DNA of 64,000 nucleotides. It comes from a virus. How positions within the stretch are numbered: position 1 is the first letter of the stretch; every line of letters begins with the position of its first letter. This document shows, one piece after another, positions 48,505-64,000 of this stretch. The stretch is taken from positions 1 through 64,000 of the IMG/VR virus record IMGVR_UViG_3300009551_000007; one strand, given 5' to 3'. The notes under the pieces are model-generated. The model was not told the DNA's origin. It did no database searches and saw nothing but the letters and a program-made list of their open reading frames with translations. The position numbers and the translations under genes are program-made.

Positions 48505-49580
48505 GCTCGCGGCGTACTCGGATTGTGCTTGGCGGAGTCGGCGACCTTACCCATGTCGGTCTCAGGAATATCGGCAACCGTGTAGTATTCACCCTCGACT
48601 ATGGGTGCCGTCATACAGATACCGTGAGACCTCAGTGCGTCATTTAGACTACATTCCCCGCACCACATTACCGGTCTGATCTTGCTCAGCTCGCCTCGGT
48701 TCCAAGTTAGCACTTTCGTCGCCGCCTTATCGCAGTACTGACAAGCCGGCACGAGCGGAACGACGTTATTCAGTTCCTTCAGATTCGGCAACGCCTCATC
48801 CATCTGCGCCGCCGGAACGTGAGTCAGCGTGGTATGCCCTTCTCGGTTCCCGTAGAACTTGGCGAACGCTCGGTTACCGACTGCCTGACGTTCGGCTTCG
48901 CGGTCGCGGTTCTCGTCGGCGGCTGCCTTCTCGGTGAATTTGTCTGGGAACCTCGCACGGAGCTTAGCAATGTTGGAACGCATCACGTCTTCGAGGGAGA
49001 AGCCGAGTGCGTTACAGGCGAGTGCGACGTACCACATCATATCGCCGAGTTCCTCCTTAGCGTTGGTAGTGTCGAGTGGCTTCCCGTACCAAATGTTCTT
49101 CTGGAGGAGACTACAGAACTCGCCGGCTTCCCCACTCATGCCGATGGCCGCGTGGAGTGCGCGGGTTTGTAGCACCGCGTCACTGCTATTGGGGACGTCG
49201 TTGATGTTGTCGAAGGACACGAAGCCGCCGAACGAGTGGGCAATGCGCTTCAGGGCTTTGATCTGCGGCGCTTCGGTGCGACTGGCGAGTTCCTGATACA
49301 CGTCGGGGAGCATTGGTTCGACGGGCGGCATTGGTGCCTTGGTTGGTACGTCCGCGAACGGTTCGCGACCGCCGTGGAGGGCGGTGTTCGGCTTCGGCTG
49401 ACTCATTTTCTTCTCCAGGTCTAGGGCTAACTGGTGAGGACACGGGCCGTGAACGCTACGGAGCGTGTCGCACCGGGGACAAAGATCGTTAACAGAATAA
49501 CCTAAGGGGCTATGCGGGCAGATTGTCCAGCGGCTCGCGTCGTCGTACACGCGGCCGCACTTGTCACATTTTACGTACAC
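48501..49580 (-). CDS. MazG-like nucleotide pyrophosphohydrolase with flanking Cys motifs
   Basis: GMSGEAGE...KEELGDMMWY...NIAKLRARFP. Confidence 0.85.
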   Translation of the reverse strand: MYVKCDKCGRVYDDASRWTICPHSPLGYSVNDLCPRCDTLRSVHGPCPHQLALDLEKKMSQPKPNTALHGGREPFADVPTKAPMPPVEPMLPDVYQELASRTEAPQIKALKRIAHSFGGFVSFDNINDVPNSSDAVLQTRALHAAIGMSGEAGEFCSLLQKNIWYGKPLDTTNAKEELGDMMWYVALACNALGFSLEDVMRSNIAKLRARFPDKFTEKAAADENRDREAERQAVGNRAFAKFYGNREGHTTLTHVPAAQMDEALPNLKELNNVVPLVPACQYCDKAATKVLTWNRGELSKIRPVMWCGECSLNDALRSHGICMTAPIVEGEYYTVADIPETDMGKVADSAKHNPSTPRA

Positions 49581-49625
49581 TTCATTCTCCGAACAGGAAA
49601 CTTCGGACGATAATGATTACCCATT

Positions 49626-50105
49626 TCATTCCAGATGCCTCCAATTTCTACCGTTTATCACGTGAGATATTGCTGACTGACTCACTTTAAAGTAGTCAGC
49701 AATCTTATGCTGGCTCCATCCTAATTTGCGCAGGACCACTATCGACCTAACTTGCTGTTCAGTCATTTTAGCTCGTCCGTGCTTAACCCCGAAACTATGT
49801 CGCTTCTTAGACACCTTGTCGTCGGAATTATCTTTGGCAGTTCCAAGGAACAAGTGTCGAGGGTTTACGCACTTAGGTACGTCACAAGAATGAAGGACGT
49901 TTAGTCCCTCCGGTATCGGTCCAAATGCTAAGCACCAACTAACTCTATGGGATAGACACTCTCCATTTAGTTCGTTACCGACGTTGTCTATTAAGCCGTA
50001 TTGGCCAGCCTTCTTTCGAGCAACGTATAACCAGCATTCGTTCGGCCCGCGTTTATTAACTTTGGGCCAGAATCGTTCGACTATTGATCTCCTGGGTCTA
50101 CTCAT
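49626..50105 (-). CDS. HNH homing endonuclease with C-terminal HTH
   Basis: ERFWPKV..ECW, SHRVSW, VLHSCDVPKCVNPRHL, N..D; visibly AT-richer than neighbours. Confidence 0.9.
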   Translation of the reverse strand: MSRPRRSIVERFWPKVNKRGPNECWLYVARKKAGQYGLIDNVGNELNGECLSHRVSWCLAFGPIPEGLNVLHSCDVPKCVNPRHLFLGTAKDNSDDKVSKKRHSFGVKHGRAKMTEQQVRSIVVLRKLGWSQHKIADYFKVSQSAISHVINGRNWRHLE

Positions 50106-50813
50106 TCAATAACGTCTAACCTCCCACCATATGGTATTGAAGCCGGGAACCGTGCCCCATTCACATTCGTAGGTGGAGAACTCGACCACGTGACCGGGAT
50201 AGCGGTCTAGTAGTATCTCCAACCAATCGAGACTGTTCGGGCACATGTGCTGCTTGAGTATCAGCCGTGCCCTGGTTCCTTCCGCGTGCATTCGCGACTG
50301 GTAATCCCTCCGGGCGTATTCGGCGTTGAAGCCGTCGCGCATCGTCATCCGTTCGCGGTTGAACATTAGGTACAGACCGGCACTGTTCATTCCGGCATGG
50401 GTCGGCTCGGTCGCCGGGTCGAGTAGCACGATTTCGCCTTGGAGTACCTTGCGGTGTTCCGGGGCCATCGCCGAGCAGTACCACACGTCGGGGTTCGGTG
50501 CGGTCGACCATAGATTCACGATCTGCCACGCCGACATGTTGTAATGGGTTGCGCCCGCAGCGACCTTGTTACGCAAGTGGAACTTCTGATCATAGCCGAG
50601 TTTCTCAGCCCAGTCGTAGGCGTGCTGGAAGTCGTACAGGGTCTTCCAGGTCGGCGAAGCGTTGCCGAACTCTCCCGCCGCGTACCGCCGCGCGAAGTCG
50701 ACCTTGGTTAGCACGGGCGGCGGGTGCTCGATTTCGCGGAACCTTATCCAGTGCAGGTTCACCCATTCATTCACGTCCACTATTTCGCCCTCCGTTTCAA
50801 CCATTCGGTACAA
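50106..50813 (-). CDS. Hypothetical protein in the DNA-modification cluster
   Basis: 235 aa, overlaps the thymidylate synthase-like stop. Confidence 0.7.
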   Translation of the reverse strand: MYRMVETEGEIVDVNEWVNLHWIRFREIEHPPPVLTKVDFARRYAAGEFGNASPTWKTLYDFQHAYDWAEKLGYDQKFHLRNKVAAGATHYNMSAWQIVNLWSTAPNPDVWYCSAMAPEHRKVLQGEIVLLDPATEPTHAGMNSAGLYLMFNRERMTMRDGFNAEYARRDYQSRMHAEGTRARLILKQHMCPNSLDWLEILLDRYPGHVVEFSTYECEWGTVPGFNTIWWEVRRY

Positions 50814-52132
50814 GCCAACCGCCAGTCGTCGGCCATTATGGTCGTGGCGACCTCTAAGGCATGATCCATGCTCTCCCGCCCGTCAATACCGGCGGAGTCC
50901 TTGGCTTTAGACCTCTTATATGCCTTGAACGCACTGAACGTTGGAGATGCTACGTTACGCAGGAACGGCTCGCTTATGTCGCCCAGGTTTAGTGAACGGT
51001 CGGAATCCCCACCGTCGTAGAAGTCAACTATCGTCCGTAGTTGATCCTCGAACACCTCTACATTCTTGATGAGTGGCACAGTCTTGGAGATCATACAGCC
51101 TGGGGCATCAGTGTGGAGAGAATACCCGTCAGCGAAATTTTTGGCATTGAGCCATTCCTCCGGCTTCCAGTTCCAGTCGTAGACGTGGAGGTTGTTGGTG
51201 AAGTGGTGGTACTTACCAACTTCGGCACCTAGTCTCGCGGCCATGTACTCCTGGAGGAAGGTAAAGTGACAATAGTTGGCTCCTAGTAGTCCCCAGATCA
51301 GATCGTTGCTGCGGTTAGTCACCGTCATGTCGAGATAGGTCTTAGTCCCCCGTACCGGCATCGCCATGTGATGCTCAGCCTCTCTATTGATATACTCCTC
51401 TTGGCGGATGCTAAACATCACCGACAGGTTGCAGCATGTATCGCGAGACCCTTTGTCTTTATGTGTACCGTCACATTCAGGACAGTGACCACTTTGGTTA
51501 GGGTCTCCGTTAAATTTATCACCGGCTCCGTTACAGTACCTACAAACCCCTCCCCCAATCTTCAACAGGTCGTCCTCCACATTCCACATCTGGAGCACGG
51601 CCCGGCGGGAATTGGGGTCTGCCTTGAGATGGTTGACAAGAATGTCCAGTTGATCAATCCCTCCATGTTGTTTGTGCCAAGCTAATTTCACGCTCGGACA
51701 TTCTTCAAATCCCTTAATACTGGTCATAGCAGTCCGCCACCGATACCCGTAAGCCCCATTAGTGGTCACCCCGTCGTCGCTGAATTCCTTCATCTTCTTC
51801 GCGTAGTACGCGAGCGGGGTTACGTCGTTCCGACCCGCGAGCATCCATAAGGCTTCGTAGAGGTGGAAGAATGGGTTAGCGTCGCGTGCGGCGTTGAATA
51901 GTACCCGTTCCCGTGGGTGCGAGTAGGTGAGCGTGACCGGTTCGTCGATCATCATCACGTTGCCGTTGCGGGACGGTTTCTTGACGACCAGTTCTCTCTC
52001 TACGTAGTCAGTGTGTAGTGGGTTCCCATCGTCGTCGTAGCTGGTCCTGGCCTCGCGGACCTTGCCGCCGTTCTTAAATAGTTTCACCAAGTCGCGGAAG
52101 GCGGTGTTTACGTTTCGAGTGCGTAGGTGCAT
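50780..52132 (-). CDS. Thymidylate synthase-family enzyme, probable dUMP hydroxymethyltransferase
   Basis: NPFFHLYEALWML.GR, GAYGYRWR, SRRAVLQMW, DTCCN, NRSNDLIWG..GAN, NLHVY. Confidence 0.88.
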   Translation of the reverse strand: MHLRTRNVNTAFRDLVKLFKNGGKVREARTSYDDDGNPLHTDYVERELVVKKPSRNGNVMMIDEPVTLTYSHPRERVLFNAARDANPFFHLYEALWMLAGRNDVTPLAYYAKKMKEFSDDGVTTNGAYGYRWRTAMTSIKGFEECPSVKLAWHKQHGGIDQLDILVNHLKADPNSRRAVLQMWNVEDDLLKIGGGVCRYCNGAGDKFNGDPNQSGHCPECDGTHKDKGSRDTCCNLSVMFSIRQEEYINREAEHHMAMPVRGTKTYLDMTVTNRSNDLIWGLLGANYCHFTFLQEYMAARLGAEVGKYHHFTNNLHVYDWNWKPEEWLNAKNFADGYSLHTDAPGCMISKTVPLIKNVEVFEDQLRTIVDFYDGGDSDRSLNLGDISEPFLRNVASPTFSAFKAYKRSKAKDSAGIDGRESMDHALEVATTIMADDWRLACTEWLKRRAK

Positions 52133-52168
52133 GATCAGCTCCTTGAAAGACGGGCGACTAGGGGTAGG

Positions 52169-52783
52169 TTACGCGATACCGGCTTCACGGTTCGCTTGGT
52201 TGAAAAGTTCGGTCGCGTAACTCATGAATTCGAGCACGAGGCGCGACTCGATGCCCAGCTGCATCATAGGCGGGAAGTCCACGTTCACTTCGCGGACGAT
52301 CTCCATTGCTTTGTTGATTATGGACTGGGAACCGCCGATAATGTTCTCGACGGTCCGGGCGTGGACGGTTTCCTTTAACCCGTAGAACTGGGCTGCAGCG
52401 TACTGCTCGATTTTGTCGAACAATTCGACCCGTTCCCAGTCCTCCACCGACGGAACCCGTCCGGCTAACTGAAGCCAGAACCGCTCGCGGACCGGCTTCT
52501 CAGCCGCACGCTGGCCGACACATTTTACTGGGCCGGGCACGTCGCCGAACACTGTTACTTCCACCTCATGTAGGAGTGTAAATAACGCCACTTCGGCTCG
52601 TGCGTCGAAGTACCGGGCGAGCCGAGCGGCCCCGACACAGTGATGTGCGACCGATTGGAACAGTCGGGTATGGCCGGCATACATTGGCGTCCGACAGTGG
52701 TTGAGTGCTATGTCGTGCATTGTAGCTACGCCGTCGTCGGGTTCGATGCGGGCACCAGAGAAGAGGACGATGTAGGGTTTCAT
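52169..52783 (-). CDS. HD-superfamily (YfbR-like) nucleotide phosphohydrolase, variant
   Basis: DIA...YAGHT...SVAHH...LLHE...GDVPGPVK (HE in place of HD). Confidence 0.7.
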   Translation of the reverse strand: MKPYIVLFSGARIEPDDGVATMHDIALNHCRTPMYAGHTRLFQSVAHHCVGAARLARYFDARAEVALFTLLHEVEVTVFGDVPGPVKCVGQRAAEKPVRERFWLQLAGRVPSVEDWERVELFDKIEQYAAAQFYGLKETVHARTVENIIGGSQSIINKAMEIVREVNVDFPPMMQLGIESRLVLEFMSYATELFNQANREAGIA

Positions 52784-52811
52784 TTTAGCTCCTTGAGGCG
52801 GGCGAACGTGG

Positions 52812-53378
52812 TTAGGCGGGCGAAGACGTTAGTGATCTGAGACTCTCCCGCACGTATGCGACAGGGTCGGTCATGGCGTGCCGGTTATCGTTGCGACGAT
52901 GAGGGAATAGTACTGCCTTTCCCCCGGTCGCGCGGCCCTTCTCGTCGGCGACGAACCGGTTACAGTTAGGCGGGCTGTCGTCGATCAAGACGGCACCGGG
53001 CTTCGCGACCTTGTACTTGTGCGGGGTAATGAGGAACCGGTCGAACCGCGGGCCGAAGAACTGTTTCATCCACCGGACCTTGCCAGTATAGGACGCCTGA
53101 CAGTGGCCCGCGTCCGTCAGAGTTTCGAGGGGGCAAGTAACGATGTGGAACGCCGAATCGTACCGCTGGACGAGGGCGATCAGTTCATCGGCCCACTCGA
53201 AGGGCTTGAGGCCCGTCCAGAAGTCGGCGTCTCCCACGATTGGCCGAATGAACTTCTCACCGGTCCACACCGAGTCGCCGTAGACGCGGATCATTTCCAG
53301 GTGAGTGAGGCCGTGTGCCCGACACGCGCCGCCGAGAAAATCGACCAGCACCTCGTCGAGGTCGAGAAAAATTTCCAC
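52812..53378 (-). CDS. 5'(3')-deoxyribonucleotidase (HAD, NT5C-like)
   Basis: FLDLDEVLVDF, FW..L, GK..W, LIDD; GGAGG SD before GTG. Confidence 0.85.
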   Translation of the reverse strand: MEIFLDLDEVLVDFLGGACRAHGLTHLEMIRVYGDSVWTGEKFIRPIVGDADFWTGLKPFEWADELIALVQRYDSAFHIVTCPLETLTDAGHCQASYTGKVRWMKQFFGPRFDRFLITPHKYKVAKPGAVLIDDSPPNCNRFVADEKGRATGGKAVLFPHRRNDNRHAMTDPVAYVRESLRSLTSSPA

Positions 53379-53440
53379 ACTAAGTCCTCCATAAAATCCA
53401 AGGGTCGGAAACAATTTGAGAGAAAACAGCCGGTACGCTA

Positions 53441-53471
53441 TTGACGTTGCGGGCCGACCGGCTATTATAAC
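53441..53471 (+). promoter_or_regulatory. Sigma70-like promoter for the lone + strand gene
   Basis: TTGACG 53441-53446 followed by TATTATAAC 53463-53471. Confidence 0.6.
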
Positions 53472-53545
53472 GGTGTAGGGCGAAGTGGGGGTTCAGCCGA
53501 AGACTGTCTGACGCGACCCTCGCTGACCTATAAAGGAGCTTTAAG

Positions 53546-54010
53546 ATGACCATTGCTAACACCACGACCACGACCACCCCGAAGACCGCCGGTAAGTCGA
53601 AGACCGCGAACCCGAAGCCGGCGAAGGGCGCGAAGCCGGTAGCCGCGAAGAAGGCCGACCCGAAGCCGAAAGCGCCGGCACTCAAGGAACTCAATAGTGG
53701 CCTCCGGACGCCGCAAGTGCGAGTGCTCCAAGCCCTCTCGAAGGGCAACGTAATGAGCCGGTCGCAAATCAGCGAAGCCGGTAAGGTGGACCAGGCGGCT
53801 CTCGTCGAGTACATCGGTAGCTCCGACGACAACGTGCGAAAGGTCAACGACGAAAAGCACTTCAAGAGCCTGGTGACCCTCAAGTACGTGAAGTTCGCCA
53901 AGCCGCCGGAAGCAGACGCCGTCGGAGCGTACTACGAAATCACAGCCGCAGGTCGACAGATCGTCACCAAGATTCTCGCCGCCTACAAAGCCGCCGGTAA
54001 GACGGTCTGA
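53546..54010 (+). CDS. Lys/Ala/Pro-rich winged-helix DNA-binding protein
   Basis: Histone H1-like N-terminal tail, LRTPQVRVLQAL...MSRSQISE...YEITAAGR; AAGGAG SD. Confidence 0.75.
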   Translation: MTIANTTTTTTPKTAGKSKTANPKPAKGAKPVAAKKADPKPKAPALKELNSGLRTPQVRVLQALSKGNVMSRSQISEAGKVDQAALVEYIGSSDDNVRKVNDEKHFKSLVTLKYVKFAKPPEADAVGAYYEITAAGRQIVTKILAAYKAAGKTV

Positions 54011-54036
54011 CCCGCTACCCGATTCGCCCAATCTTC

Positions 54037-54072
54037 AAACACCCCAGCATTAGCCGGGGTGTTTCGCTTTTA
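54037..54072. terminator. Intrinsic terminator between convergent genes
   Basis: AAACACCCC...GGGGTGTTT stem followed by CGCTTTT. Confidence 0.7.
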
Positions 54073-54900
54073 CCCCACATTCCACATTAGCATTTCGCCG
54101 GCGTACTCGCTACGGTGATTTATCAACCAGCGGAACGCCTTCAGGTCGTAATACTTGTTCGACGGCCACGCCGGGTCTCGCCCCGGCCTCGACTCGTCGC
54201 CGTAAGAGTACCCTTCGTCAATAATCGTCAAGTCGTCGTCCATTGAGTACCCGGACGAATCCGCCAGGTACTGGAGCAGTTCCTCGTGACTCCGCGAATA
54301 GCCCAAGTGGATAATGAACTTGGGTGGTGACCGTCCGATATCGTTGGCACGGTCGACGAACCCGCGAATCACCCCGGCGGCGATTGTACCCGACGACGCC
54401 GGCACTATCACGTAATCGGCGTAGGGGCAGCCGGTCACTTCCTTCGCGGTCTCGTCGACCGATTCGCTCAGCTTTAGGGCGTTGGGGATCATTACGCCGC
54501 CGCGCCCCAGCACGTCCTTCTTCGCCTGATGATAGAGCACGGCACTCATGCCGGCTTTTAGTGCGACGATTTCCGCGCCCAGTTCCGCCGATTTGAGCTG
54601 TGCCGGAAACGGTCCCTTCTCCTTCACGCGACTCGGATAGTAGTTCACGCATTTCTTACCGAGGAGCGAACAAGCGCGTGCGACCGCGTGGCCAGCTTGA
54701 GAGTGGTACGTGTCGAGGACGCCGATCACTTCCGCCTCCTGTTTCGCTACCCAAGCGTAGACGCCGCGCGCCTTGGAGAACGGTGGGCCTGGTGGGGGAC
54801 ACGCTAAGTCTTCGCGCTTCACCCAAAGCCCGAACGCCTCTCGGTGGTCCTCCACGGGCGTGTTACGATTGAGCATTCCGCGAGCCGTCCGAACCATCAT
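54070..54900 (-). CDS. PLP-dependent enzyme (fold type II), DNA hypermodification decarboxylase candidate
   Basis: LWVKREDL...FSKARG, VPASSGTIAAG, YYDLKA, WNVG. Confidence 0.85.
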   Translation of the reverse strand: MMVRTARGMLNRNTPVEDHREAFGLWVKREDLACPPPGPPFSKARGVYAWVAKQEAEVIGVLDTYHSQAGHAVARACSLLGKKCVNYYPSRVKEKGPFPAQLKSAELGAEIVALKAGMSAVLYHQAKKDVLGRGGVMIPNALKLSESVDETAKEVTGCPYADYVIVPASSGTIAAGVIRGFVDRANDIGRSPPKFIIHLGYSRSHEELLQYLADSSGYSMDDDLTIIDEGYSYGDESRPGRDPAWPSNKYYDLKAFRWLINHRSEYAGEMLMWNVG

Positions 54901-55103
54901 TAGATTTCCTCCGTCGATGCCGGGTAGAAACTATCGCCCTTGTCGTCGAGGACGCTGACGCCGACGACGGCATCGCATTCACATATGTAAAGCGTCATCT
55001 GTCGTCCGTTCGCGGAACACGACTCTTCCTTTGGCGTGTTCAACGAATCGTGGACGTTACTGTAACGGTATGTCTTACCGCAGTAAGGGCATTTCACTTC
55101 CAT
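54900..55103 (-). CDS. Small Zn-ribbon protein
   Basis: MEVKCPYCG...ICEC. Confidence 0.55.
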   Translation of the reverse strand: MEVKCPYCGKTYRYSNVHDSLNTPKEESCSANGRQMTLYICECDAVVGVSVLDDKGDSFYPASTEEI

Positions 55104-56083
55104 AACCCGCCTCGCTTTCCCGCTTTGATTAGTTCTTGTGACAGTGGGCACTTCGCGAACCGTAGGAGGGCGTTCCGCGCCGCTCTCACGTCCTCGCCGA
55201 TTTCGTAATGGCCCTTCGTGTATGAGTGCCATTTACATAATATCGTCTCCACTTCCTGCCCGTTGAGAGGCCTATCGTACCGAGGCGGCGCGAAGCCCGC
55301 TAACCGGCCGCGGAACTCGTCCACCTCTCGGTTGTCGACCTCCACTCTCGACATCTTAGGAATCACGTTTAGCGGTCGCTGGCTATAGACCTTAGTTCGC
55401 GGGCGTTCGTTGCTAGGCGGTGATGCTAAGTGTGTAAGAATGTCGTTAATCGCCCACTCGCCTACCGCGTCGCCGAACCCGTTCGACGGTTCACCGCACA
55501 CACTCCAGTGTAGCCGCGCCCCCTCCTGGGGAGAATCGTACATGACCGTGTGGGTGTCGAACGCGACCCGGCATAAGTCGAGGCGTTCGAGCATGTCCGC
55601 GACCTTGAAGGCGATCCACGGGCCGAACCCCACCCACGTTCTCACGTACCGGATAATGTCTTCGGCGCGGAGGATGCCGAGCGTGCTTTTCGCCGGCCCG
55701 CTATCGAAGTAGGAGAACAGGTTATCGACGCCTTGCGACCGGAGCCATTTCACCGACGCCTCCGCGTTCCGGCCGCGGAAGTGACGGCGTTCGGCGGAAC
55801 GGGGGAAGTCGGCATTGCCCTTCGATAGAGCCGCCGTCATCATCCGGTCGAAGAACGCCGATTCGACGTCATGAGGGTACGCCAGCGCCGACGCCGTACC
55901 CACGTGGTAAAAGCACCAGTAGGCGAGGAGCCACCGCTTGAGCTTGAACCTGTGATGACTGTCGCGTAAGGCGTCGGCTTTGATTGCCTCCCACGCCAAC
56001 ACGTAGATCGGGTCCAGGTCGTTCAGTCGGAGCAGTTCGCGGCCGAAGGCGTAGACCGTCATGCCGCCGGTCTCGGTACTCAC
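55094..56083 (-). CDS. Amino acid:DNA transferase (aGPT-pyrophosphorylase clade 2-like)
   Basis: DLDPIY, WLLAYWCFYHVG, ERRHFRG, GFGPWIAFKVADMLER, QEVETILCKW.S...GHY. Confidence 0.85.
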   Translation of the reverse strand: MSTETGGMTVYAFGRELLRLNDLDPIYVLAWEAIKADALRDSHHRFKLKRWLLAYWCFYHVGTASALAYPHDVESAFFDRMMTAALSKGNADFPRSAERRHFRGRNAEASVKWLRSQGVDNLFSYFDSGPAKSTLGILRAEDIIRYVRTWVGFGPWIAFKVADMLERLDLCRVAFDTHTVMYDSPQEGARLHWSVCGEPSNGFGDAVGEWAINDILTHLASPPSNERPRTKVYSQRPLNVIPKMSRVEVDNREVDEFRGRLAGFAPPRYDRPLNGQEVETILCKWHSYTKGHYEIGEDVRAARNALLRFAKCPLSQELIKAGKRGGLWK

Positions 56084-56313
56084 TTGCCGTCCTCCGCGAC
56101 CTTGATCTGGATAGGCCCAGGTGGCAGATCGGTGGTGCCGCCCGGCTTCAGTCCGACGAGTATGGCACGGTCGGCGGACCAGGCCAAGTACACGTGGCAT
56201 ATCGGGCACCGTCCGCCGACGGGTACGGACTTCACGAACCGGTCCGGTTCCATCTCGACGCGCTGCTTGCACACCGGACAGAATATGTTGACCTTGAATA
56301 GGGGCTGACTCAT
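56080..56313 (-). CDS. Small Zn-ribbon protein
   Basis: CPVC...CPIC. Confidence 0.6.
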   Translation of the reverse strand: MSQPLFKVNIFCPVCKQRVEMEPDRFVKSVPVGGRCPICHVYLAWSADRAILVGLKPGGTTDLPPGPIQIKVAEDGK

Positions 56314-58670
56314 TTCTTCACTCCGAGTTGAATGAGTTGGGTGGCGCGGCCCTTGCCTTCGCCGATGGGGATTTTCAGATCACGCATTTCGACCGCGTTC
56401 GCTTCGCCGGCCAGTTCGTCACCGCAGCGTGGCTTCCCGGCGTTGTCCTCGGAACAATGTAGACAGCCCGACGGCGGACACTCCTCGACCGGGCGGAACT
56501 GCTCGGCGTCGGAGGCACGCGTGAAGACCGGGACGGCGTGCCCGTGGCACTGGTCCGAGGTCGTGAAGTCGCGGGCGATACTGACGCCGGTCTTCGATAA
56601 CACCTTCCCGTCGGCGTCGCGGGCGTACTTGTACTCGTAGCATACCGAGTACGTGAGACCGTACTTGCGGGCGTAAGAGGAGTACATGCGGTGCGCCTTG
56701 AGGCGGTACTCCTCTTCCACCGTCCGCTGCGAACCGATGTTTTGCGTGAACAGTTTCTCGAACGCCGCGCCGCGTTCGCCGAACGTCTGTTTCATCCGCT
56801 CGACCATGGCCGGTGCTCAACTGTAGCCGGCCTCGACGAACTTGACTATGACGTGGTCCGCGCCGACCGCCCGGAGGCGCTGGAACAGTTTGACGATGTC
56901 GCCGTGCGACGTCACCCCAGGCACTATTGGGTTGACCTGAATCGAGACGTAGATGCCGGCGGTCTTCAGTCGCTCGATGTCGGCGTAATGGTCCTCCAGG
57001 CTCATGGCACCGGGCGAGAGGAGTTTCCAGTCTGCGGCGTCGCCCGTGTTGAGGGACTTTTGCGCGTAGGAGTACGGCGACAGCTTCAAGAGGTCCACGG
57101 CCCAGTCCGGGTAGCGGAGGCGCGACAGGAAGAACAAGGGCAGCCCGGCGTCGACGAACGCCTTCGCACCTTCCTCCGTATTGTGGTAATACTGTTCGAG
57201 AGGCGTGAACGGGTCGGTGAACGACGAGAAGTAGCCGGCCGCGCCCCGGCGCATTTTGGTGATCTGTTGTCGCACCTGGTCGCCGTAACCCAGCGGGACG
57301 GTAATTAGGCCGGTGCCCCTGTAGCCGCGCATACCGGAGTTGATATAACAATTGTGAACTAGAACGCCCCGCTGGAAGAAGTTTTGCGATTCGGTTTGGA
57401 TGTCGTGGACGCGAACTCGTCCCGGTATTTTTTCAACCCCGACGACGTAAGTATCCCCAATCTCTTTAGTGCCTTTTGGTCGAAAATTACCACGTGGTAT
57501 CCCATTAGTCTGGCTTGCTGAATTTTCCTCTCGCCGTCGGCAGTCATGTACCCTTTCACCTCGAATATACAGTTGTCGGGAGGGAGAACGAAGTCGGGCA
57601 CATATGCCGACCCGTCCGGCAACGAAATTGAAAACGGTTCGTAATCCCAATCGTACCCACGGCGGTCGAGGTACTCCGCGAGTAACCGTTCCCATCCCGA
57701 CCTCATTTGAAATGTGCGACCTTTTCTGTCCGTGAATAGGCCGCGCTTGGAATGTTTGTATCCCGATACGCCGTTCCTGACTCGTTCCGCTTGGGCTAAT
57801 CTCCATTCCGGGGATTTCGGCCCACTGGCCCTCTTGCTCATAGACTCTCTGTTCGCGAGAGCATGGGCGCTCATTCTCTGGCGCGTCTCCGTAGACTTGG
57901 GCTTCCCCTTGGTAGGCGACGACTTGCCCAACCTCTTCATGCCGTTCTCGGAGCGAATCACTAACAGGCAAGCATCGCAGACTTTCCTGTGGTTCGGTAT
58001 GACCGTATCGCATCGGCAGGCTTTCAAGGCGTTCTCCCGGTTTTAGGTTTACCGCGTTCACCCATGCTCGGCGGGAAACCGAGTATACCGGATGATCACC
58101 GGTCATTAATAGCTTCCGCCCGTCGTTCAAAATCAATCTCACCAACCCTTCCGGCTTCCAATGCGACGTTACCCCCACGACCTTAGTGATTTGTACGCCC
58201 AACGGCGTCCTGCCCAGTACCGAGTCGCCGACTTTGAAACTTTCTATCGGTGCCGAACCATTGGGGGTGTCGACCAGTTCACCAGCTGGTAAAGAGAACT
58301 TACAGCCTACCGCGCACCAACCGCCGTAGGGTTCAGTGAGAACGGCTTCGGTGAAACAAGGCCGCGGGCGGCTCGCGGCGCTCTCGTTGTGAAGACTCTG
58401 ATACCAACCTTGGAGTTCCTTACCCTTCTCAATTCTCATGTGAGGGTAGGGCTGGAGGTACGCGAGAACGGCCTTCTTGTCCTCGTCTTTGGCGTTGCGC
58501 ACCATACCGATACGCACATCACGGACCTTGGTGACGCCCAGGTACGGGTCGCTGATCACGCGAATCGGTCCCAGTTCCTCACGGGGTTCCTTAGTCATGA
58601 AGTAATGGTAGCGTTCGGCGGACACGTCGGATTCATCGGTCCGCCCCACCCAGTCGGTCTCGTTATTCAC
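56310..58670 (-). CDS. Radical SAM enzyme of the hypermodification cluster; contains an intein and an in-frame TGA at 56819-56817
   Basis: After intein removal the motif reads CAVGCKFC; FSSFTDPF; frame stays open past the TGA (YS*APAMVERM) into the Cys-rich ORF 56310-56807. Confidence 0.85.
57351..58295 (-). mobile_element. Intein (315 aa) in the radical SAM CxxxCxxC motif
   Basis: Block A SLPAGELVDTPNG...IESFKVGDSV, block B TGDHP, blocks F/G VHDIQTESQNFFQRGVLVHN followed by Cys. Confidence 0.93.
57359..58027 (-). CDS. PD-(D/E)xK endonuclease with NUMOD3-like DNA-binding segment, nested out of frame in the intein
   Basis: KGKPKSTETRQRMS, RSGWER...LD..GY.W.YEP...YVPDF...FEVKGY; GGGAG SD 6 nt before TTG. 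Confidence 0.88.
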   Translation of the reverse strand: MKACRCDTVIPNHRKVCDACLLVIRSENGMKRLGKSSPTKGKPKSTETRQRMSAHALANRESMSKRASGPKSPEWRLAQAERVRNGVSGYKHSKRGLFTDRKGRTFQMRSGWERLLAEYLDRRGYDWDYEPFSISLPDGSAYVPDFVLPPDNCIFEVKGYMTADGERKIQQARLMGYHVVIFDQKALKRLGILTSSGLKKYRDEFASTTSKPNRKTSSSGAF

Positions 58671-58980
58671 TGTCGGTCTCCTTGGATTGTTCTGAGTGCC
58701 ACTTGTAGAACGTCGCCAATTTGGCGTCGACGCGGCCCATGTAAGCCGCGTCGTTCAAGCCGTTAGCTTGTGTGAAAAACAGTACCGCCGCGTTGAGGTC
58801 AGCCAGTTCGGCCCGGAGGCCGTCGCGGAGGTCACCGTCCCAGTGCTTCGTGTCGCCGCCGGTCTGGAGGAGCTTGCCCAGTACCTGGAGGACTTCACCA
58901 CACTCCTCGATGAGCTTGGCCGTGCCGGGCCAGGTCTTCGACCCGAACGAAAACGGGTCACCGCAGTTGATCTGATCCAT
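58663..58980 (-). CDS. MazG-like protein
   Basis: KLIEECGEVLQVLGK...ELADL; GGGAG SD. Confidence 0.75.
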   Translation of the reverse strand: MDQINCGDPFSFGSKTWPGTAKLIEECGEVLQVLGKLLQTGGDTKHWDGDLRDGLRAELADLNAAVLFFTQANGLNDAAYMGRVDAKLATFYKWHSEQSKETDSE

Positions 58981-59080
58981 CGTCTCCCTCCCGTATCTGT
59001 CGCAGTTTCCAACCGGCCACCAGGCCAATGAGGAACGCGAACAGCATTCCGATTGCCACCGTGAGAACCGTGCTAGTCAT
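58958..59080 (-). CDS. Small membrane protein (40 aa, not in ORF track)
   Basis: MTSTVLTVAIGMLFAFLIGLVAGWKLRQIREGDDGSDQLR. Confidence 0.5.
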   Translation of the reverse strand: MTSTVLTVAIGMLFAFLIGLVAGWKLRQIREGDDGSDQLR

Positions 59081-59273
59081 CGTCGGCACTCCTCACGCTC
59101 GTGTCGTCGGCGATCTTTCGGACCGTTACCGTGACGACGTACTGGACGTTGTAAGAGTCAGTGAGGACACGCGCCAGTGCCGTCTCGATCTGCTCACCGA
59201 TACGCACGGCGGGCAGATACTCCTCGTCTGCGGTGACGAACGTCTTATCCATCAGCACATCGTTCGGACTCAT
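59073..59273 (-). CDS. Hypothetical protein
   Basis: MSPNDVL..., GGAGG SD. Confidence 0.5.
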   Translation of the reverse strand: MSPNDVLMDKTFVTADEEYLPAVRIGEQIETALARVLTDSYNVQYVVTVTVRKIADDTSVRSADDD

Positions 59274-59290
59274 AGTTCCCTCCAGAGAGT

Positions 59291-59947
59291 TTAGGCACGC
59301 ACTCGTGCCGTGAGTAGGTTGACGACTAGTTCCGGTAACTGGCGGGCGGAAGCGCGGCGGCACCATACGCCCGCTTCGGTCAATTTTACCCGCGCCCGCT
59401 CTATCGTATTGACCCGCTTAGTTGTATTCAAGTGGTTGAGTTCCTTTTCGTTTCCGGCTTCCTGTCGCCGCGCCTTGATCTGATCGAGACACTTATCGAC
59501 TGGCGTGTTGAGGAAGAAGCAGCGGACGTCGGACATTTGGAGTGTCCATTTTGTGTCCTCTGAGAGGAGTAGCCCCTCGGTTAGTACGACTCCCGCACCG
59601 CCGATTATGCGGCGGCATGTACAACCCTTCACGTCGCCGGCGTCAATCACGTCGTACACGGCGCGTGCCGAACCAATGTTGTCGCACCCGCCGCAGACCG
59701 CTTCGTAATGGCCGAGCACTATGATTCTAGGCGGGAAAATCGGTAGCCTGGAGTTACCTAGTTCCATGTCGTACTCGCGGAGGTAGTAGCCGAGTGGCTT
59801 CTTGCGCCCCTCGAACTCGACCAGCTTGCCGTTATCGACGCCGGCGTCAACGTAGAAGGGCACCCAATCGCTGCCGAGGAGTGACATTATGGACCTCATA
59901 GCCCAGGTCTTGCCTGATCCTGAGGTGCCGCGAATTTGCACGATCAT
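59291..59947 (-). CDS. P-loop kinase, probable 5-hydroxymethyluracil-DNA kinase
   Basis: IRGTSGSGKT, LGHYEAVCGGCD, EGLL, LNTP...C...I..RR. Confidence 0.85.
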   Translation of the reverse strand: MIVQIRGTSGSGKTWAMRSIMSLLGSDWVPFYVDAGVDNGKLVEFEGRKKPLGYYLREYDMELGNSRLPIFPPRIIVLGHYEAVCGGCDNIGSARAVYDVIDAGDVKGCTCRRIIGGAGVVLTEGLLLSEDTKWTLQMSDVRCFFLNTPVDKCLDQIKARRQEAGNEKELNHLNTTKRVNTIERARVKLTEAGVWCRRASARQLPELVVNLLTARVRA

Positions 59948-60627
59948 TAGCCCCTCCGAATGGTTCTCAGTTCGAGGTCGAGGCCGGCGATGGCCCGCCT
60001 CAAGTTTTCCTCGGTCAGTAAGCAGTTCAGTTCGCGGTACACGCCGCCCCTCGCGCCCGGCACCGGAACGAGTTTATCGGCCCACTCCATGCGGCGGTAA
60101 TCGCCCTTCCAGACGTTCCCCGACGACGTTTCATCCGTGACGCCCTGCTCGCTCGCCTGACCGTGAAACACGACCACGATGTCGACGTCGCTCGACAGAC
60201 CCGTTGCCGCCCAGTTGGTCGCTCGCGGATGCTTGATCTTCGGCGCGCGGACCAGTAGGCACCGGAGAAGGTACTCACCGAGCGTCACCGTCGCGAGGGT
60301 CTCACTCGCGTTGATATTCTCGTACCCCAATTCGGTCTTGGCTTTCGGCAGCGCCTTGGCGACTTCGGCGGCGAACATGAGGAAGACGTCGTTGCTCACT
60401 TTGGTCTCGTCCTTAGACCCGTCTCGCATGCGGCGGTACACTTCGACCTTGTCGACGCCGGCGTTATTGTAGAACACGGCCACTGCCTGGATATGCGCTT
60501 CGGAGAGGAGGCTACCGACGCCGGCGGGGACGGCAGCAGCAGACACAGGGCCTGCTATGTGAAAGTAAGCGCGGACCGGGTCGGGGTTCGTCCCCTCAGT
60601 GACATGTATTAGGTTCGGTTCGGACAT
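59947..60627 (-). CDS. Hypothetical protein
   Basis: 226 aa, coupled between transferase and kinase genes. Confidence 0.65.
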   Translation of the reverse strand: MSEPNLIHVTEGTNPDPVRAYFHIAGPVSAAAVPAGVGSLLSEAHIQAVAVFYNNAGVDKVEVYRRMRDGSKDETKVSNDVFLMFAAEVAKALPKAKTELGYENINASETLATVTLGEYLLRCLLVRAPKIKHPRATNWAATGLSSDVDIVVVFHGQASEQGVTDETSSGNVWKGDYRRMEWADKLVPVPGARGGVYRELNCLLTEENLRRAIAGLDLELRTIRRG

Positions 60628-60629
60628 TG

Positions 60630-61487
60630 TTAGACTCCTGGGTAACGGGATTTGGGCTTACCTTCGCTGTGGAGTGCGCGTTCGTACTTGTCGAACTCGC
60701 ATAGACAGTTCTGGTAGTCGTGGGCTTCGAGGCGCGAACTAATTGATTCGGGGAGCACTGAGCGTAACTGTTCGATGAGTTCGCGGAGGCGTTCCACGAA
60801 ATAGTCCTGATGGAAACCGGATTTTACCGGCAGTCCGAGGACGCGGTTCATTCCACGCGCACTGCCCGGCCCGACCGGTGCCCACCTGTTGTAATCGGAC
60901 CAGTAACCGTCCTTTGCCCAGCGGAGGTCCGCGACGACTTGCCCGGCCATGAACGAACCGAACCCGTACCGGCATACGAGCGCTTCGTGGGCGGCTTGCA
61001 TGGTGGACCCGTCGATGACCGGTGGGTCGGACAGGAGGTGTTCGAGGTAATAGTCGAACACGGAAGCGATCTTATCCTGACCGTCGTTACCTCGCACCAT
61101 GTATGCACCGTTGAATATCGTTACCCCTTGCCGTTTTACCGCGCGGAGGAGAGCGACTATGTCGTCAACTTGGGGGCCGCGAGAGTCGAATACGAGTTGG
61201 GTTATTCGGTCGAGGGACGACGGGAGGTTAATGAACCGCGCGACCGCCGCCGCGTACACGATACTGGGATGATCGAAATGGGGTTCGTACCAGTTGTTCC
61301 ATAGCCAGACGCTCACGGCGTCGTCCATACGCCGGACGTTGCAGAAGCGGTACTGCTGTAGTATCTCGTCGTCGGTCCAGGGCTTAGCTTCGCCCGCCAT
61401 ACGCTTCAAACGGACCGATTCCCGTTCGCGAATCCAGTATGCGAGACGGGCGAACGGGGACAGCTTACGGACGTCTTCGGTATTCAT
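60630..61487 (-). CDS. Amino acid:DNA transferase (aGPT-pyrophosphorylase clade 1-like)
   Basis: ERE...PWTDDEIL..YRFCNVRRMDD, GAYMV, GFGSFMAGQVVADL, GPGSARG, QNCLCEFDKYER. Confidence 0.88.
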   Translation of the reverse strand: MNTEDVRKLSPFARLAYWIRERESVRLKRMAGEAKPWTDDEILQQYRFCNVRRMDDAVSVWLWNNWYEPHFDHPSIVYAAAVARFINLPSSLDRITQLVFDSRGPQVDDIVALLRAVKRQGVTIFNGAYMVRGNDGQDKIASVFDYYLEHLLSDPPVIDGSTMQAAHEALVCRYGFGSFMAGQVVADLRWAKDGYWSDYNRWAPVGPGSARGMNRVLGLPVKSGFHQDYFVERLRELIEQLRSVLPESISSRLEAHDYQNCLCEFDKYERALHSEGKPKSRYPGV

Positions 61488-61600
61488 ATTTTCCTCATAG
61501 GGTAAAAGCCTTGCACTGGTCATAATCCCAGTCCTCGACTAGGGCCTGGAACCGGATGTGCGGGGGTAGGTCTTGAAACTTTAGGGCTATGGAGAGCCGC

Positions 61601-61834
61601 TCAATAGCACCGGCAACAGCCCTTGCAGCCCCACATGGCCGGCGGACACTGTTTCCCGCACCCCGGCCAGTGACAGTGGTGGCTACGGGTTTGCCCCTGG
61701 TTCTTTACCCAGTTTACCTTCACTTGCTTCGGGAGGGTAGCTACCTGAGCTTCCTTCTCCCGCCGCGCCCTGATCGCTTCCGCTCGCGCCCTCATGAGTC
61801 GTCTTTGATACACTATCGCCGGTATCGGTGGCAT
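61601..61834 (-). CDS. Small Cys/His-rich protein
   Basis: HHCHWPGC...PPAMWGC..C. Confidence 0.55.
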   Translation of the reverse strand: MPPIPAIVYQRRLMRARAEAIRARREKEAQVATLPKQVKVNWVKNQGQTRSHHCHWPGCGKQCPPAMWGCKGCCRCY

Positions 61835-62459
61835 GTGAGTGCTCCTTGTCGTAGGCCGTGATTAGCCCACCCTCACGCGAGTAGGCACACTTCTCGAAAT
61901 GCTTATCCATCACAGCCTTATAGCCCACGTTCCCTTCCGCTTCGTGCGCGGTCACGCCTTCATCCCAGTCCTTACGGTTCGTAATCATACCGGGCGAACG
62001 ACAGACCGGGCATGTCGGTATCCCCGGTCCGGCGTAGCCGAGCTTCGACCAGTCATCGGTCCAGTACGTGCACATTGCCGAGTACCAGACCGCACGGAGT
62101 GGGTCGTCCGGGCCGCACTTCGTCCCCGATTGAGTGAGACATTTCTTCCCGACGCCGACGGACGATTCATCGGTCACGGGTGCCGTAGAGACGCCGGCTA
62201 ACGAGTCGATCTCCTCTTTCGTATTGACTAGTACGGTAATGGGGACGTTAATATGGCCCGTGACCTCGACGGCGAAGTTGCGGGCCAGCTGGAGGACGAA
62301 CGCCGCCTTCATCACCGACATGCTCTTCCCGTTCACCGCGACGACGTTGGCAATGCTCGTGCGCTTATCGACGACGTTGGCGACGACGAGGTAGGAGCCG
62401 TTGCGGAACGAGAACACGTCCCCGCAAACCAGGTTCTCGACTAGTGTAGTTGATTTCAT
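61683..62459 (-). CDS. Hypothetical protein with Cys motif
   Basis: 258 aa; CTYWT.DW...GIPTCPVC. Confidence 0.6.
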   Translation of the reverse strand: MKSTTLVENLVCGDVFSFRNGSYLVVANVVDKRTSIANVVAVNGKSMSVMKAAFVLQLARNFAVEVTGHINVPITVLVNTKEEIDSLAGVSTAPVTDESSVGVGKKCLTQSGTKCGPDDPLRAVWYSAMCTYWTDDWSKLGYAGPGIPTCPVCRSPGMITNRKDWDEGVTAHEAEGNVGYKAVMDKHFEKCAYSREGGLITAYDKEHSHATDTGDSVSKTTHEGASGSDQGAAGEGSSGSYPPEASEGKLGKEPGANP

Positions 62460-62563
62460 CTGTGTCCCTTTCGAGTTTGAAAATGAGCCACGCCCCGATC
62501 AAGCCTATGAAGGGGGTCGAGATCAGGGCCAGTACGCTGTAGCCGTCCATAGCGGTCTCCGTG

Positions 62564-64000
62564 CTAGAGGGTCACGCCTTCACTCCAGCTCACCTCATTA
62601 AACTCAACACCTACCGGCGTGGGGATACCGAACCCCTCACCGCCCTTCTCCATGAGGCGTTGGAGTACCCGTATCCTACCGAGGTTCGAGTGTTTCGGGT
62701 TCGTCTTCGGGTGGGCACGTTTCGGGAAGTCGAAAACGATTTCGTCGTGGACCTGAATGGCCATGAAGTAACCGTCGTGTGCGAGGTTGCCGCCCCGCGC
62801 CAGTACCTGTCTGTTCCACTCGTCGAGCTGTTCCTGGCACCTCACCATGGCGCGGGCGGTCCACCACATAGCCGACCCTTGAATATGATAGTTTAGCGGG
62901 ACGGTTTCGAGGATATAGCCCCTCTCCGTTCGCGTACACATGATCGGATAGCCGCGCGCCGGGTCAACCGACTTGTCGGGAATCGTCTCCACGTACCCGT
63001 ACTTGTTGGCGAACCGTATGCACTTCTGGTTGAGTGCCTCCAGTTTCGAGAACCGCTGTTTTAGGAGGCGGTGGCTGTATTGCTTATGGAACGCGCGGTC
63101 TGCCGTCCCCCATCCGTCAACCTTCTCTACTGCGCCGTACTGGACCGCGAACCCGCCGTTTTTACACCACTGGTAGTAGCTCGCGCCGTACTTCTTCTTG
63201 CAGTACGGACCTGCTTTATCGAGACCCACTTCCGCCACCGCCGCGTCCCATATGTCGGGGTAGACGGTATGGAACCGTAGCAAGTGGTTGGAGCCGTAGT
63301 ACGGCGGTGATTCCGAGTTCTCGAATATCTCGATCAGTTCCTCTTGCAAACTCTCATATGCCGGTAGTCGGTCCTCGATGCCCTTCGCGTCGAGTGAGTA
63401 CCATTCGCGACCCGGCCCAGGGCCGAAGCCCTTGCGGAGATTGAACGATTCCTTCTTCGAGACGTTCTGCACGTTCGGGTACTTACAGCCGGCGCGGAGG
63501 GTGTCGGTGCCGGTCTGACGGTAGTCCGGGCATAGCGTGTACCACTCGCCCTCCGTCATTAGCCCCATAACGTCTTGTTCCATGGGTATCCAGAACCGCT
63601 TATAGCCCTCCATGTAGATTATCGCAGTGTCCCGACTCCGTTTCTCCTCAAGTTTACATATGAACGTCCGCTCCTTGGACGTGATCGGGAGCGTCAGTTT
63701 GTAGTGGGGTATAGCCACCTTGGCGTCGAGACTCGGCGCGTTGGTCTTGGATTTCGGGTTGCGGACGTGCTCCAGCTTCATCTTGTCGAAGCACAGTTCT
63801 CGGAGCGAGTTATTGACCCCGCTCTTAGGGAGCACCAAGTCATGACCGAACGACTTGGCTATCGACACACTGACGCGAGCCGCCCGTTCCGATTCTTCGC
63901 GGTACTCCGTCGTCAGTTCGTCGAGACGGAGGCGATTGACGGTCACGCCCCGGTCCTCCATGCGGTAGAAGATCGCCGGTAGCCTCATCCGTTCGGCGAA
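62564..64000 (-). CDS. Family A DNA polymerase, C-terminal part (5' end beyond window)
   Basis: MEDRGV, QTGTDTLR...PNVQNV, motif A SLDAKGIEDR, motif B KNGGFAVQYG, IQGSA, motif C QVHDEIVF. Confidence 0.9.
   Translation of the reverse strand, partial: FAERMRLPAIFYRMEDRGVTVNRLRLDELTTEYREESERAARVSVSIAKSFGHDLVLPKSGVNNSLRELCFDKMKLEHVRNPKSKTNAPSLDAKVAIPHYKLTLPITSKERTFICKLEEKRSRDTAIIYMEGYKRFWIPMEQDVMGLMTEGEWYTLCPDYRQTGTDTLRAGCKYPNVQNVSKKESFNLRKGFGPGPGREWYSLDAKGIEDRLPAYESLQEELIEIFENSESPPYYGSNHLLRFHTVYPDIWDAAVAEVGLDKAGPYCKKKYGASYYQWCKNGGFAVQYGAVEKVDGWGTADRAFHKQYSHRLLKQRFSKLEALNQKCIRFANKYGYVETIPDKSVDPARGYPIMCTRTERGYILETVPLNYHIQGSAMWWTARAMVRCQEQLDEWNRQVLARGGNLAHDGYFMAIQVHDEIVFDFPKRAHPKTNPKHSNLGRIRVLQRLMEKGGEGFGIPTPVGVEFNEVSWSEGVTL

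Follow-up and report, generated by a model that had tools for sequence, protein, structure and literature searches.

The IMG/VR record IMGVR_UViG_3300009551_000007 is a single contig of 81,752 bp, handled here as a virus record, and its bases 1-64000 (the window) contain an operon that probably makes a hypermodified thymine by a pathway like that of phage M6. Judged from sequence, the operon, which belongs to an uncultured 81.7-kb tailed phage of soil or rhizosphere, is predicted to produce 5-(2-aminoethyl)-2'-deoxyuridine (5-NedU). Its radical S-adenosylmethionine (SAM) gene is interrupted, within the Fe-S motif, by a putative intein, in which a predicted homing-endonuclease gene (HEG) is nested in the +1 frame. 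As a pathway, the operon is another one of the M6 type, a kind already characterised biochemically, and adds little; of greater use is the radical SAM gene, whose mobile element is noteworthy, with a recent precedent.

In M6, according to PMC8989533, 5-hydroxymethyl-2'-deoxyuridine (5-hmdU) in DNA is phosphorylated by gp54 and given glycine by gp51; the resulting N-alpha-glycinyl-thymine is turned by gp53 into C-alpha-glycinyl-thymine, from which gp52 makes 5-NedU by decarboxylation. Metavirome contigs with the same gene content were already reported there (Lee et al. 2021). Six gene types had been named in a sequence-only reading of the window, and all were found on one strand (minus) in one block at 50780-61523. 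The block extends to 61523, the upper coordinate of the open reading frame (ORF) of the PF18723 protein; 61487, given earlier as the end, is the second Met of that ORF. Six functionally linked families with such E-values within 11 kb are far beyond chance. The features of the block are as follows.

60630-61523, minus strand: PF18723 (HMUDK_hel) protein, homolog of M6 gp55 (PF18723, 1.6e-41)
59947-60627, minus strand: 226-aa ORF between the PF18723 gene and the kinase gene (no family match)
59291-59947, minus strand: P-loop kinase, predicted 5-hmdU DNA kinase (Walker A, phrog_800, PaMx11 gp49)
58663-59028, minus strand: small MazG-like NTP pyrophosphohydrolase (phrog_25433, 3.5e-25; phrog_4856, 6.7e-12; PF03819, 4.5e-3, below cutoff)
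56310-58670, minus strand: radical SAM enzyme gene, ortholog of M6 gp53 (phrog_9252, 1.3e-121 and 5.1e-44)
57351-58295, minus strand: predicted class-1-type intein of 315 aa within the radical SAM gene (PF14890 just below cutoff; splice residues)
57359-58027, minus strand: predicted nested homing-endonuclease gene, 222 aa, TTG start, +1 frame (7 homologs)
56817-56819, minus strand: in-frame TGA at a conserved Trp of the radical SAM gene (translation; alignment to M6 gp53)
55094-56272 as the longest ORF, 55094-56062 by homology, minus strand: PF18724 (ADDT) amino acid:DNA transferase (PF18724, 1.4e-10)
54900-55232, minus strand: small Zn-ribbon ORF
54070-54900, minus strand: pyridoxal-phosphate (PLP)-dependent enzyme, homolog of M6 gp52 (PF00291, 1.9e-12; phrog_7093, 1.7e-59)
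52812-53414, minus strand: NT5C/HAD-like 5'-deoxyribonucleotidase (phrog_2643, 4.9e-10; PF06941, 7.4e-4, below the curated cutoff)
52169-52783, minus strand: dNMP phosphatase-like protein (phrog_318, 3.9e-11; phrog_8467, 'deoxyribonucleoside 5' monophosphate phosphatase', 5.9e-8)
50780-52132, minus strand: thymidylate synthase (TS)-fold enzyme of 450 aa, predicted dUMP 5-hydroxymethylase (PF00303, 3.9e-19; phrog_5131, 5.3e-92)

The earlier proposal of an M6-like product, 5-aminoethyl-dU, is well supported as a prediction by homologs of five M6 proteins, by a kinase resembling that of phage PaMx11, and by a transferase that retains the catalytic Cys and six glycine-pocket residues. This transferase belongs to PF18724 (ADDT), the former aGPT-Pplase2, with a score of 41.8 bits against a cutoff of 26.2; it was 31% identical to M6 gp51 (BLASTP) and matched the PDB entries 25qc_A (1.5e-38) and 8z2m_A ('Glycinyltransferase', 5.9e-34), the homology beginning at Met 56062 although the longest ORF runs to 56272. 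When it was aligned with M6 gp51, PaMx11 gp46 and the enzyme of a related IMG/VR contig (L002), Cys247, D24, E96, K159, K248, Y257 and D262 were kept in all four sequences, the YuA numbering being taken as equal to that of M6 and the residue roles being those given in PMC13458397 and PMC11472151. The last six of these residues form the glycine pocket of the YuA enzyme, which is 97% identical to M6 gp51, and K248 and Y257 suffice to switch a diamine transferase to glycine (PMC13458397). A donor other than glycine, such as serine, a diamine or another amine, in which case the final base would not be 5-NedU, could be suspected from the low identity to gp51, from an insertion of about 45 residues relative to that protein, and from the many uncharacterised Pplase2 clusters among which two residues can switch the donor (PMC13458397). 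We consider it unlikely, as all six pocket residues are kept, including the switch residues K248 and Y257, and as the transferase is adjoined by homologs of gp53 and gp52, which process a glycinyl adduct. It is these two homologs beside a glycine-type transferase that make 5-NedU the best prediction.

The radical SAM extein was the most conserved protein of the pathway set. It is collinear with M6 gp53 over residues 13-456, in three pieces with identities of 55%, 69% and 47% (BLASTP), of which the first two are the first two extein pieces and the third follows the in-frame TGA. With this TGA read as Trp, the product has 786 aa and the extein 471 aa. A tblastn search found a gp53 homolog in 72 phage records, M6 and SN1 among them, including isolates that infect Pseudomonas, Bordetella, Rhizobium, Bacillus, Pseudanabaena and others, with hosts in several bacterial phyla. 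The PLP enzyme was 42% identical to M6 gp52 (BLASTP) and 58% to the L002 copy, scored 47.6 bits against PF00291 (cutoff, 35), and contains the Lys motif FSKARG, which we take to be its PLP-binding motif; the motif xSxK(x)RG is typical of PLP enzymes of fold-type II. No solved structure was matched by the PLP enzyme or the kinase.

The TS-like enzyme, 35% identical to M6 gp58 (BLASTP), carries the motif NRSNDLIWGLLGANYCHF. The segment WGLLGAN, which had been singled out earlier, was confirmed and aligns with WGAYGAN of gp58, and the motif NRSNDLIWG..GAN is common to the M6 and PaMx11 homologs. At the specificity position, E. coli ThyA has Asn177 and T4 gp42 has Asp179. The best solved relative was the CMP 5-hydroxymethylase MilA (5b6d, 7.7e-16), as against 4.5e-5 for a canonical TS, and the window enzyme has Asn where 5b6d has Asp. 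Because it is nearer to a hydroxymethylase than to TS, with Asn in place of Asp, we assign it as a predicted dUMP hydroxymethylase, an assignment that fits the data, though hydroxymethylation and methylation look alike at the level of sequence. Four insertions are absent from M6 gp58 and PaMx11 gp51; one of them, at 51400-51560 directly before the catalytic Cys, is a zinc-ribbon-like Cys4 segment (CRYC...CPEC).

The kinase has the Walker A sequence GTSGSGKT and falls in phrog_800 (3e-8), the PHROG that also contains M6 gp54 (2e-39). It was 49% identical to the L002 kinase and 30.8% identical to PaMx11 gp49 (YP_009196302) over 89% of its length (tblastn, E 9e-15), and PaMx11 gp49 is listed as a 5-hmdU DNA kinase in Table 1 of Lee et al. 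2021 (PMC8989533).

From these assignments, the pathway may run as follows. The TS-fold enzyme would make 5-hm-dUMP from dUMP; dTTP and dTMP would probably be depleted by two MazG-like pyrophosphatases together with two nucleotidases, and the family-A polymerase of the phage would build 5-hmdU DNA. The P-loop kinase would then phosphorylate 5-hmdU in DNA, and the PF18724 transferase, through its catalytic Cys, would displace the phosphate and add glycine to give N-alpha-glycinyl-thymine (N-alpha-GlyT). The radical SAM enzyme, active only after protein splicing, would isomerise this to C-alpha-GlyT, which the PLP enzyme would decarboxylate to 5-NedU. The HEG, which lies in the +1 frame relative to the intein, would be translated from a ribosome-binding site of its own.

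Compared with the 5-NedU pathway of M6, YuA and SN1, the operon has all six protein families, likewise clustered in a single block beside a family-A DNA polymerase. Its transferase has the catalytic Cys and the glycine pocket of the M6 enzyme, and once the intein is taken out the radical SAM protein agrees with M6 in the CxxxCxxC motif (CAVGCKF-C versus CTVGCAFC). The gene order is PF18723, kinase, radical SAM, ADDT, PLP and TS here, versus ADDT, PLP, radical SAM, kinase, PF18723 and TS in M6. Unlike M6, the phage has an intein in the radical SAM gene, a divergent kinase without a PF18748 match, a TS homolog 100 aa longer with the Cys4 insertion, and MazG-like and HAD/NT5C enzymes where M6 has an HD hydrolase. 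The PaMx11 pathway leads to 5-acetylaminomethyl-2'-deoxyuridine (5-AcNmdU) and consists of gp46 (PUGT), gp47 (FAD oxidase), gp48 (acetyltransferase), gp49 (kinase) and gp50 (PF18723). The window resembles it in the kinase (31% identity), the glycine transferase (8z2m, 5.9e-34), the PF18723 companion and the TS-like enzyme, but no flavin oxidase or acetyltransferase was found among the operon ORFs scanned, their place being taken by an M6-type radical SAM and PLP arm.

We found that the insertion in the radical SAM protein is a predicted class 1 intein. Its 315 aa lie between the Phe and the third Cys of the CxxxCxxC motif (CAVGCKF / S...VHN / CYINS), exactly where the alignment has a gap relative to M6 gp53, whose motif is CTVGCAFC, and the residues expected for splicing are present: S126 (Ser1), TGDHP in block B, VLVHN, and then C441 (Cys+1). 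Excision of the intein is needed to make the CxxxCxxC motif contiguous. Its third Cys also serves as the +1 splice nucleophile, and normal Fe-S binding before splicing would therefore be prevented; for the same reason splicing could gate when the isomerase becomes active. Redox-controlled inteins are known in MoaA.

Among the 72 phage records that have a gp53 homolog, not one covered at least 80% of the intein-bearing ORF (tblastn). The same site is occupied in L002, in a further locus (L003) and in ten database proteins (P0012-P0021). A protein search with the intein region returned 11 proteins, of which one is the window's own product with Trp; nine others, 751-826 aa long, are homologous to gp53 and contain inteins of 302-352 aa in the same position. 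The remaining one, P0021, is a gp53 homolog of 587 aa on a Logan contig of 48,791 bp, and has a mini-intein of 131 aa at the same site in the Fe-S motif; without the nuclease region, it may represent a state before or after insertion of the nuclease. In L002, the genes for PF18723, kinase, intein-bearing radical SAM, ADDT and PLP proteins follow in the same order as in the window. A tblastn search with the intein ends found no second intein in the genome, and by tblastn there was no HEG paralog either; a search of a limited literature collection brought up nothing on inteins in radical SAM enzymes of DNA hypermodification. Beside the radical SAM gene of L003 there is also an HNH-like ORF.

Read in the intein's own frame, the central stretch of about 190 residues shows no likeness to any domain; the +1 frame holds an ORF of 222 aa (P0001) with a Cys-rich N-terminus, a NUMOD3-like segment and a PD-(D/E)xK core. 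Seven database homologs were 43-63% identical over 77-99% of its length, and P144-D145...E156-V157-K158 was invariant in all eight sequences. Against Pfam, PF05367 (T7 endonuclease I) was matched at 1e-4, below cutoff. An AlphaFold2 model built from the eight-sequence alignment had a mean confidence (pLDDT) of 76, and its top Foldseek matches were PD-(D/E)xK nucleases, with I-Bth0305I (3r3p) at probability 1.00, E 4.8e-3 and a TM-score by target of 0.60, followed by Vsr (1cw0, 1vsr); no E-value was at or below 1e-3. On this model and the conserved motif, we predict that the ORF encodes a PD-(D/E)xK homing endonuclease. It is like I-Bth0305I and Vsr in predicted fold and in the PD...ExK motif, but unlike them in that it has no sequence-level match to their families, and the Foldseek E-values are weak.

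In L002 (73 kb) and L003 this intein recurs at the identical site and again harbours the +1-frame ORF, the nucleases being 60% and 52% identical to that of the window. Across the nuclease ORF, the intein frame had no stops in any of the three loci, and the third frame had 14 in the window, 13 in L002 and 12 in L003. Synonymous-codon shuffles of the nuclease ORF gave expected numbers of 8.1, 10.5 and 7.3 stops in the intein frame, which stayed open in 0, 0 and 3 of 20,000 shuffles, respectively. These counts indicate that selection keeps the intein frame open across the overlapping nuclease gene. In all three loci the start codon of the nuclease ORF (TTG or ATG) has a GGAG 6-8 nt upstream, and the nuclease is therefore probably translated on its own. 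When five nuclease proteins were compared with the 11 intein-bearing proteins, there was no in-frame match (best E, 0.19), and all ten long inteins show by eye an out-of-frame "shadow" of the nuclease motif, LGLR in nine and LGVR in one. The intein with an out-of-frame nuclease thus appears to be shared by at least 12 phages (that of the window, L002, L003 and the sources of the nine proteins), with the ORF verified on DNA in three of them, the window, L002 and L003. Of 21 viral loci found with relatives of the nuclease, 19 are more distant; in the 14 of these 19 that were inspected, the nuclease domain lies in frames of 223-509 codons with helix-turn-helix (HTH)-like repeats and with no intein motif by eye, and they appear to be free-standing HEGs. 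L023, the single close but partial locus from a metagenome scan for the HEG, and the protein P0009 are likewise free-standing and not in an intein.

Inteins with out-of-frame homing endonucleases (HENs) have been described in actinobacteriophages (Gosselin, Arsenault, Gogarten, bioRxiv 10.1101/2025.01.02.630785). As presented in that preprint, they are like the intein found here in having an intact splicing domain in frame with the extein, an in-frame middle without a recognisable fold, and a nuclease ORF that is related to free-standing HEGs of phages and occupies a different frame of the HEN region. In the preprint the HENs are either endonuclease VII-like and in frame 3, or antisense and of the LAGLIDADG or VSR-like kind, and their host genes are those for DNA polymerase, minor capsid protein, terminase and thymidylate synthase, whereas the ORF found here lies on the sense strand in the +1 frame, is predicted to encode a PD-(D/E)xK nuclease with a NUMOD3-like segment, and sits in a radical SAM gene at the Fe-S motif. 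No other relevant paper on an out-of-frame HEG in an intein was found in the limited literature collection.

The sequence-only reading had called the pathway complete, and this holds for the gene types, all of which are present; it does not hold for the radical SAM allele of the window, in which a single TGA at 56817-56819 splits the frame into same-frame ORFs of 617 and 165 aa. The TGA aligns with a Trp of M6 gp53 in VIVKFVEAGYSWAPAM (M6 ...EAGYSWAPAM...). In an 81,660-bp Logan contig of run X1 (depth, 13.5), the sole difference from the window at 55000-59000 is T>C at 56817 (plus strand), which gives TGG. Likewise P0011, a protein of 786 aa on a contig of 81,771 bp, is identical to the read-through product apart from W618 and the convention used for the start codon. 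With TGG in two other assemblies, the TGA is therefore an assembly error or a minority allele, although run X1 may be the window's own source sample, so that its TGG is not independent biology. A pseudogene combining a nonsense codon with a decaying intein, so that the pathway ended at N-alpha-glycinyl-thymine or at a PLP-enzyme product of it, would be in keeping with a TGA at a conserved Trp, with a genome that has no TGA suppressor tRNA (the only tRNA found has the anticodon CTA) and with an intein middle that resembles no domain in its own frame. This too is improbable, given the TGG in other assemblies, an extein that matches M6 gp53 at 55-69% identity upstream of the TGA and at 47% even beyond it, an intein frame free of stops in three of three loci where 7-10 were expected, and the intact splice residues Ser1, TxxH, HN and Cys+1. 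The radical SAM gene is thus probably intact.

Several observations weigh against an M6-like 5-NedU operon of this design. The product is predicted from homology only, the transferase has the insertion of about 45 residues relative to gp51, and the window sequence itself has the TGA, which, if real and common, would stop the pathway at N-alpha-GlyT or a derivative. The kinase has no match to PF18748 at E<=1, although M6 gp54 scores 65 bits, and BLASTP aligns it with gp54 at E 1e-4 over 77 residues only. PF14890 scored 32.8 bits (7.2e-8) with the whole ORF and 35.4 bits (1.2e-8) with the intein alone, against a cutoff of 35.8. In addition, two ORFs of 226 and 258 aa inside the operon, which matched nothing in Pfam, PHROGs or NCBIfam and for which the ESM Atlas gave nothing usable, could alter the final product.

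The operon had also been read as having two amino acid:DNA transferases and possibly a second modification. The PF18723 protein was 30% identical to M6 gp55 (BLASTP, E 3e-37), and M6 gp55 (8.1e-56) and PaMx11 gp50 (5.6e-41) also belong to PF18723, each encoded beside its kinase; L002 encodes one as well. The family, formerly clade 1 of aGPT-Pplase, is named HMUDK_hel by Pfam, for a helical domain of 5-hmdU DNA kinases. The naming of the aGPT-Pplase clades reportedly goes back to Iyer et al. in 2013. A second active group transferase, giving the phage two different thymine modifications, might be read from LCE(F/W)DKYER, invariant in four of four aligned PF18723 sequences, which by eye resembles the catalytic ETxLCKW of PF18724, and from the GFG.FMA helix, which resembles GFGPW in the same way. 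Comparison of the two families by hhalign, with four-sequence profiles, gave a probability of 3%, and solved structures yielded only chance-level matches for PF18723. M6 and PaMx11 encode the same PF18723/PF18724 pair, so that two such proteins are no special feature, and in the literature seen one modification is named for each, 5-NedU in M6 and 5-AcNmdU in PaMx11. According to PMC8989533, gp54 and gp51 of M6 alone made N-alpha-GlyT, reactions without gp55 still worked, and the SP10 kinase works after deletion of its fused C-terminal domain. Because the M6 reaction proceeded in vitro without gp55, a companion of the gp55 type gives no indication of a second modification, and we regard a second transferase as slightly less probable still than the two possibilities weighed above. 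The linking of a clade 1 enzyme to putrescinyl-thymine also fails, as PhiW-14 gp109 is listed as aGPT-Pplase2 in Table 1 of PMC8989533, and two aG/PT-PPlase paralogs per phage were already tabulated by Lee et al. 2018 (PMC5889632). Nothing in the PF18723 protein sets this phage apart from M6.

Genes that may act on the nucleotide pool accompany the M6-like set. Two MazG-like proteins are encoded, at 58663-59028 and 48501-49580, the former being a candidate dTTPase/dUTPase by its family, and the phosphatase-like protein at 52169-52783 is a candidate for clearing the dTMP/dUMP pool; together, the two MazG-like proteins and the two nucleotidases plausibly clear dTTP and dTMP. Two gaps, at about 53415-54069 and 56063-56309, have no convincing ORFs. 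The first (about 650 nt, from the PLP gene to the nucleotidase gene) has a GC/AT skew opposite to that of the neighbouring DNA, and its three overlapping ORFs, two of them without a Pfam match, look non-coding. Rfam at the gathering threshold gave 0 matches in 48000-64000, and promoter and terminator scans found 6 and 17 sites, not above the 4.7 and 13.0 of shuffled sequences; promoter-like sites in 53415-54069 were also no commoner than in shuffles. Directly downstream of the TS-like gene lies an HNH/HTH homing-endonuclease-like gene (49626-50105; PF13392, 3.5e-11), which is adjoined by a 235-aa ORF at 50106-50813 with no family match.

The genome encodes a tape-measure protein, a large terminase (TerL), a virion structural protein, ribonucleotide reductase, a helicase and a DNA methyltransferase, together with a family-A DNA polymerase (62564-64894), a protein of the uracil-DNA glycosylase (UDG) superfamily and a PD-(D/E)xK nuclease, and with this set of structural and replication genes it is therefore that of a tailed phage, or close to one. 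TerL (36464-38500, minus strand, 678 aa) matches positions 250-595 of its PHROG profile with residues 65-668. The methyltransferase (43163-44590, minus strand, 475 aa; phrog_67, 6.9e-71) coexists in this phage with the genes for thymine hypermodification. In the domain scan, the polymerase had a DNA_pol_A match alone, at residues 361-742, and no UDG domain; UDG-fused polymerases have been described, in recent papers, in phages with T-modified genomes. The separate UDG-superfamily protein is encoded outside the window, at 71132-71788 (minus strand) of the full record (PF03167, 5.6e-22).

The sole tRNA of the 81.7-kb genome, also outside the window (66951-67025, minus strand), has the anticodon CTA of an amber suppressor type and is labelled tRNA-Pyl by ARAGORN. 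TAG terminates 23 of 93 crude genes, and because of this we see no global TAG recoding despite the CTA tRNA. TGA terminates 32 of the 93, including ATGA overlaps, and only one in-frame TGA was noticed in the genome. Decoding of that codon as Trp, by code 4 or by programmed read-through as a regulatory device, might be prompted by its exact position at a conserved Trp codon and by a suppressor-type tRNA, but that tRNA reads TAG and not TGA, TGA is an ordinary terminator, and the codon is TGG in other assemblies and Trp in L002, so that such decoding is very improbable; codes 4 and 25 were rejected on the same grounds.

DNA near-identical to the phage was present in a rhizosphere metagenome run, which is probably the source of the window sequence; runs X2 and X3 had identical pieces of 151-272 nt only, not enough to point to a habitat, and no RNA run was among the sequencing runs listed with phage DNA. 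The operon had no match in 50,697 phage records (megablast). A Planctomycete host, as proposed before, would rest on the TIGR02996 (rpt_mate_G_obs) domain of the protein at 4336-5445 (plus strand; 43.9 bits, cutoff 29.05), a domain that is expanded in Gemmata and myxobacteria. That protein had no relative in a scan of genome contigs and found only itself in a collection of 5.8 billion proteins, the limited literature collection searched held no mention of TIGR02996, and TerL relatives occurred in three metagenome-assembled contigs of three phyla (labelled Gammaproteobacteria, Opitutaceae and Dehalococcoidia) that are probably binned phage DNA; beyond the domain, these homologs, literature and TerL relatives gave no link to Planctomycetota. 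A second TIGR02996 match, at 41460-41960 (minus strand), scored 22.7 bits, below cutoff.

For phages with hypermodified thymine, the PF18723 and PF18724 pair is thus a normal complement and not a sign of two modifications, which corrects a tempting misreading. The intein with an out-of-frame nuclease exists outside the actinobacteriophages, with another predicted nuclease fold, in a DNA-modification enzyme, and apparently in at least 12 divergent phages plus a mini-intein relative, and it cautions that gene callers split or mis-annotate intein genes with an overprinted nuclease. The architecture offers a clean natural system for how overprinted homing genes persist, and provides a candidate nuclease whose substrate must be hypermodified DNA. 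Intein and nuclease, which in at least 12 uncultured phages have kept to one site, the Fe-S motif of the predicted glycinyl-thymine isomerase, may tentatively be viewed as an active homing element specialised on phages with hypermodified thymine. If this is true, the nuclease must recognise and cut DNA containing 5-hmdU, 5-phosphomethyl-2'-deoxyuridine (5-PmdU) or 5-NedU, and would be tolerant of, or dependent on, the hypermodification.

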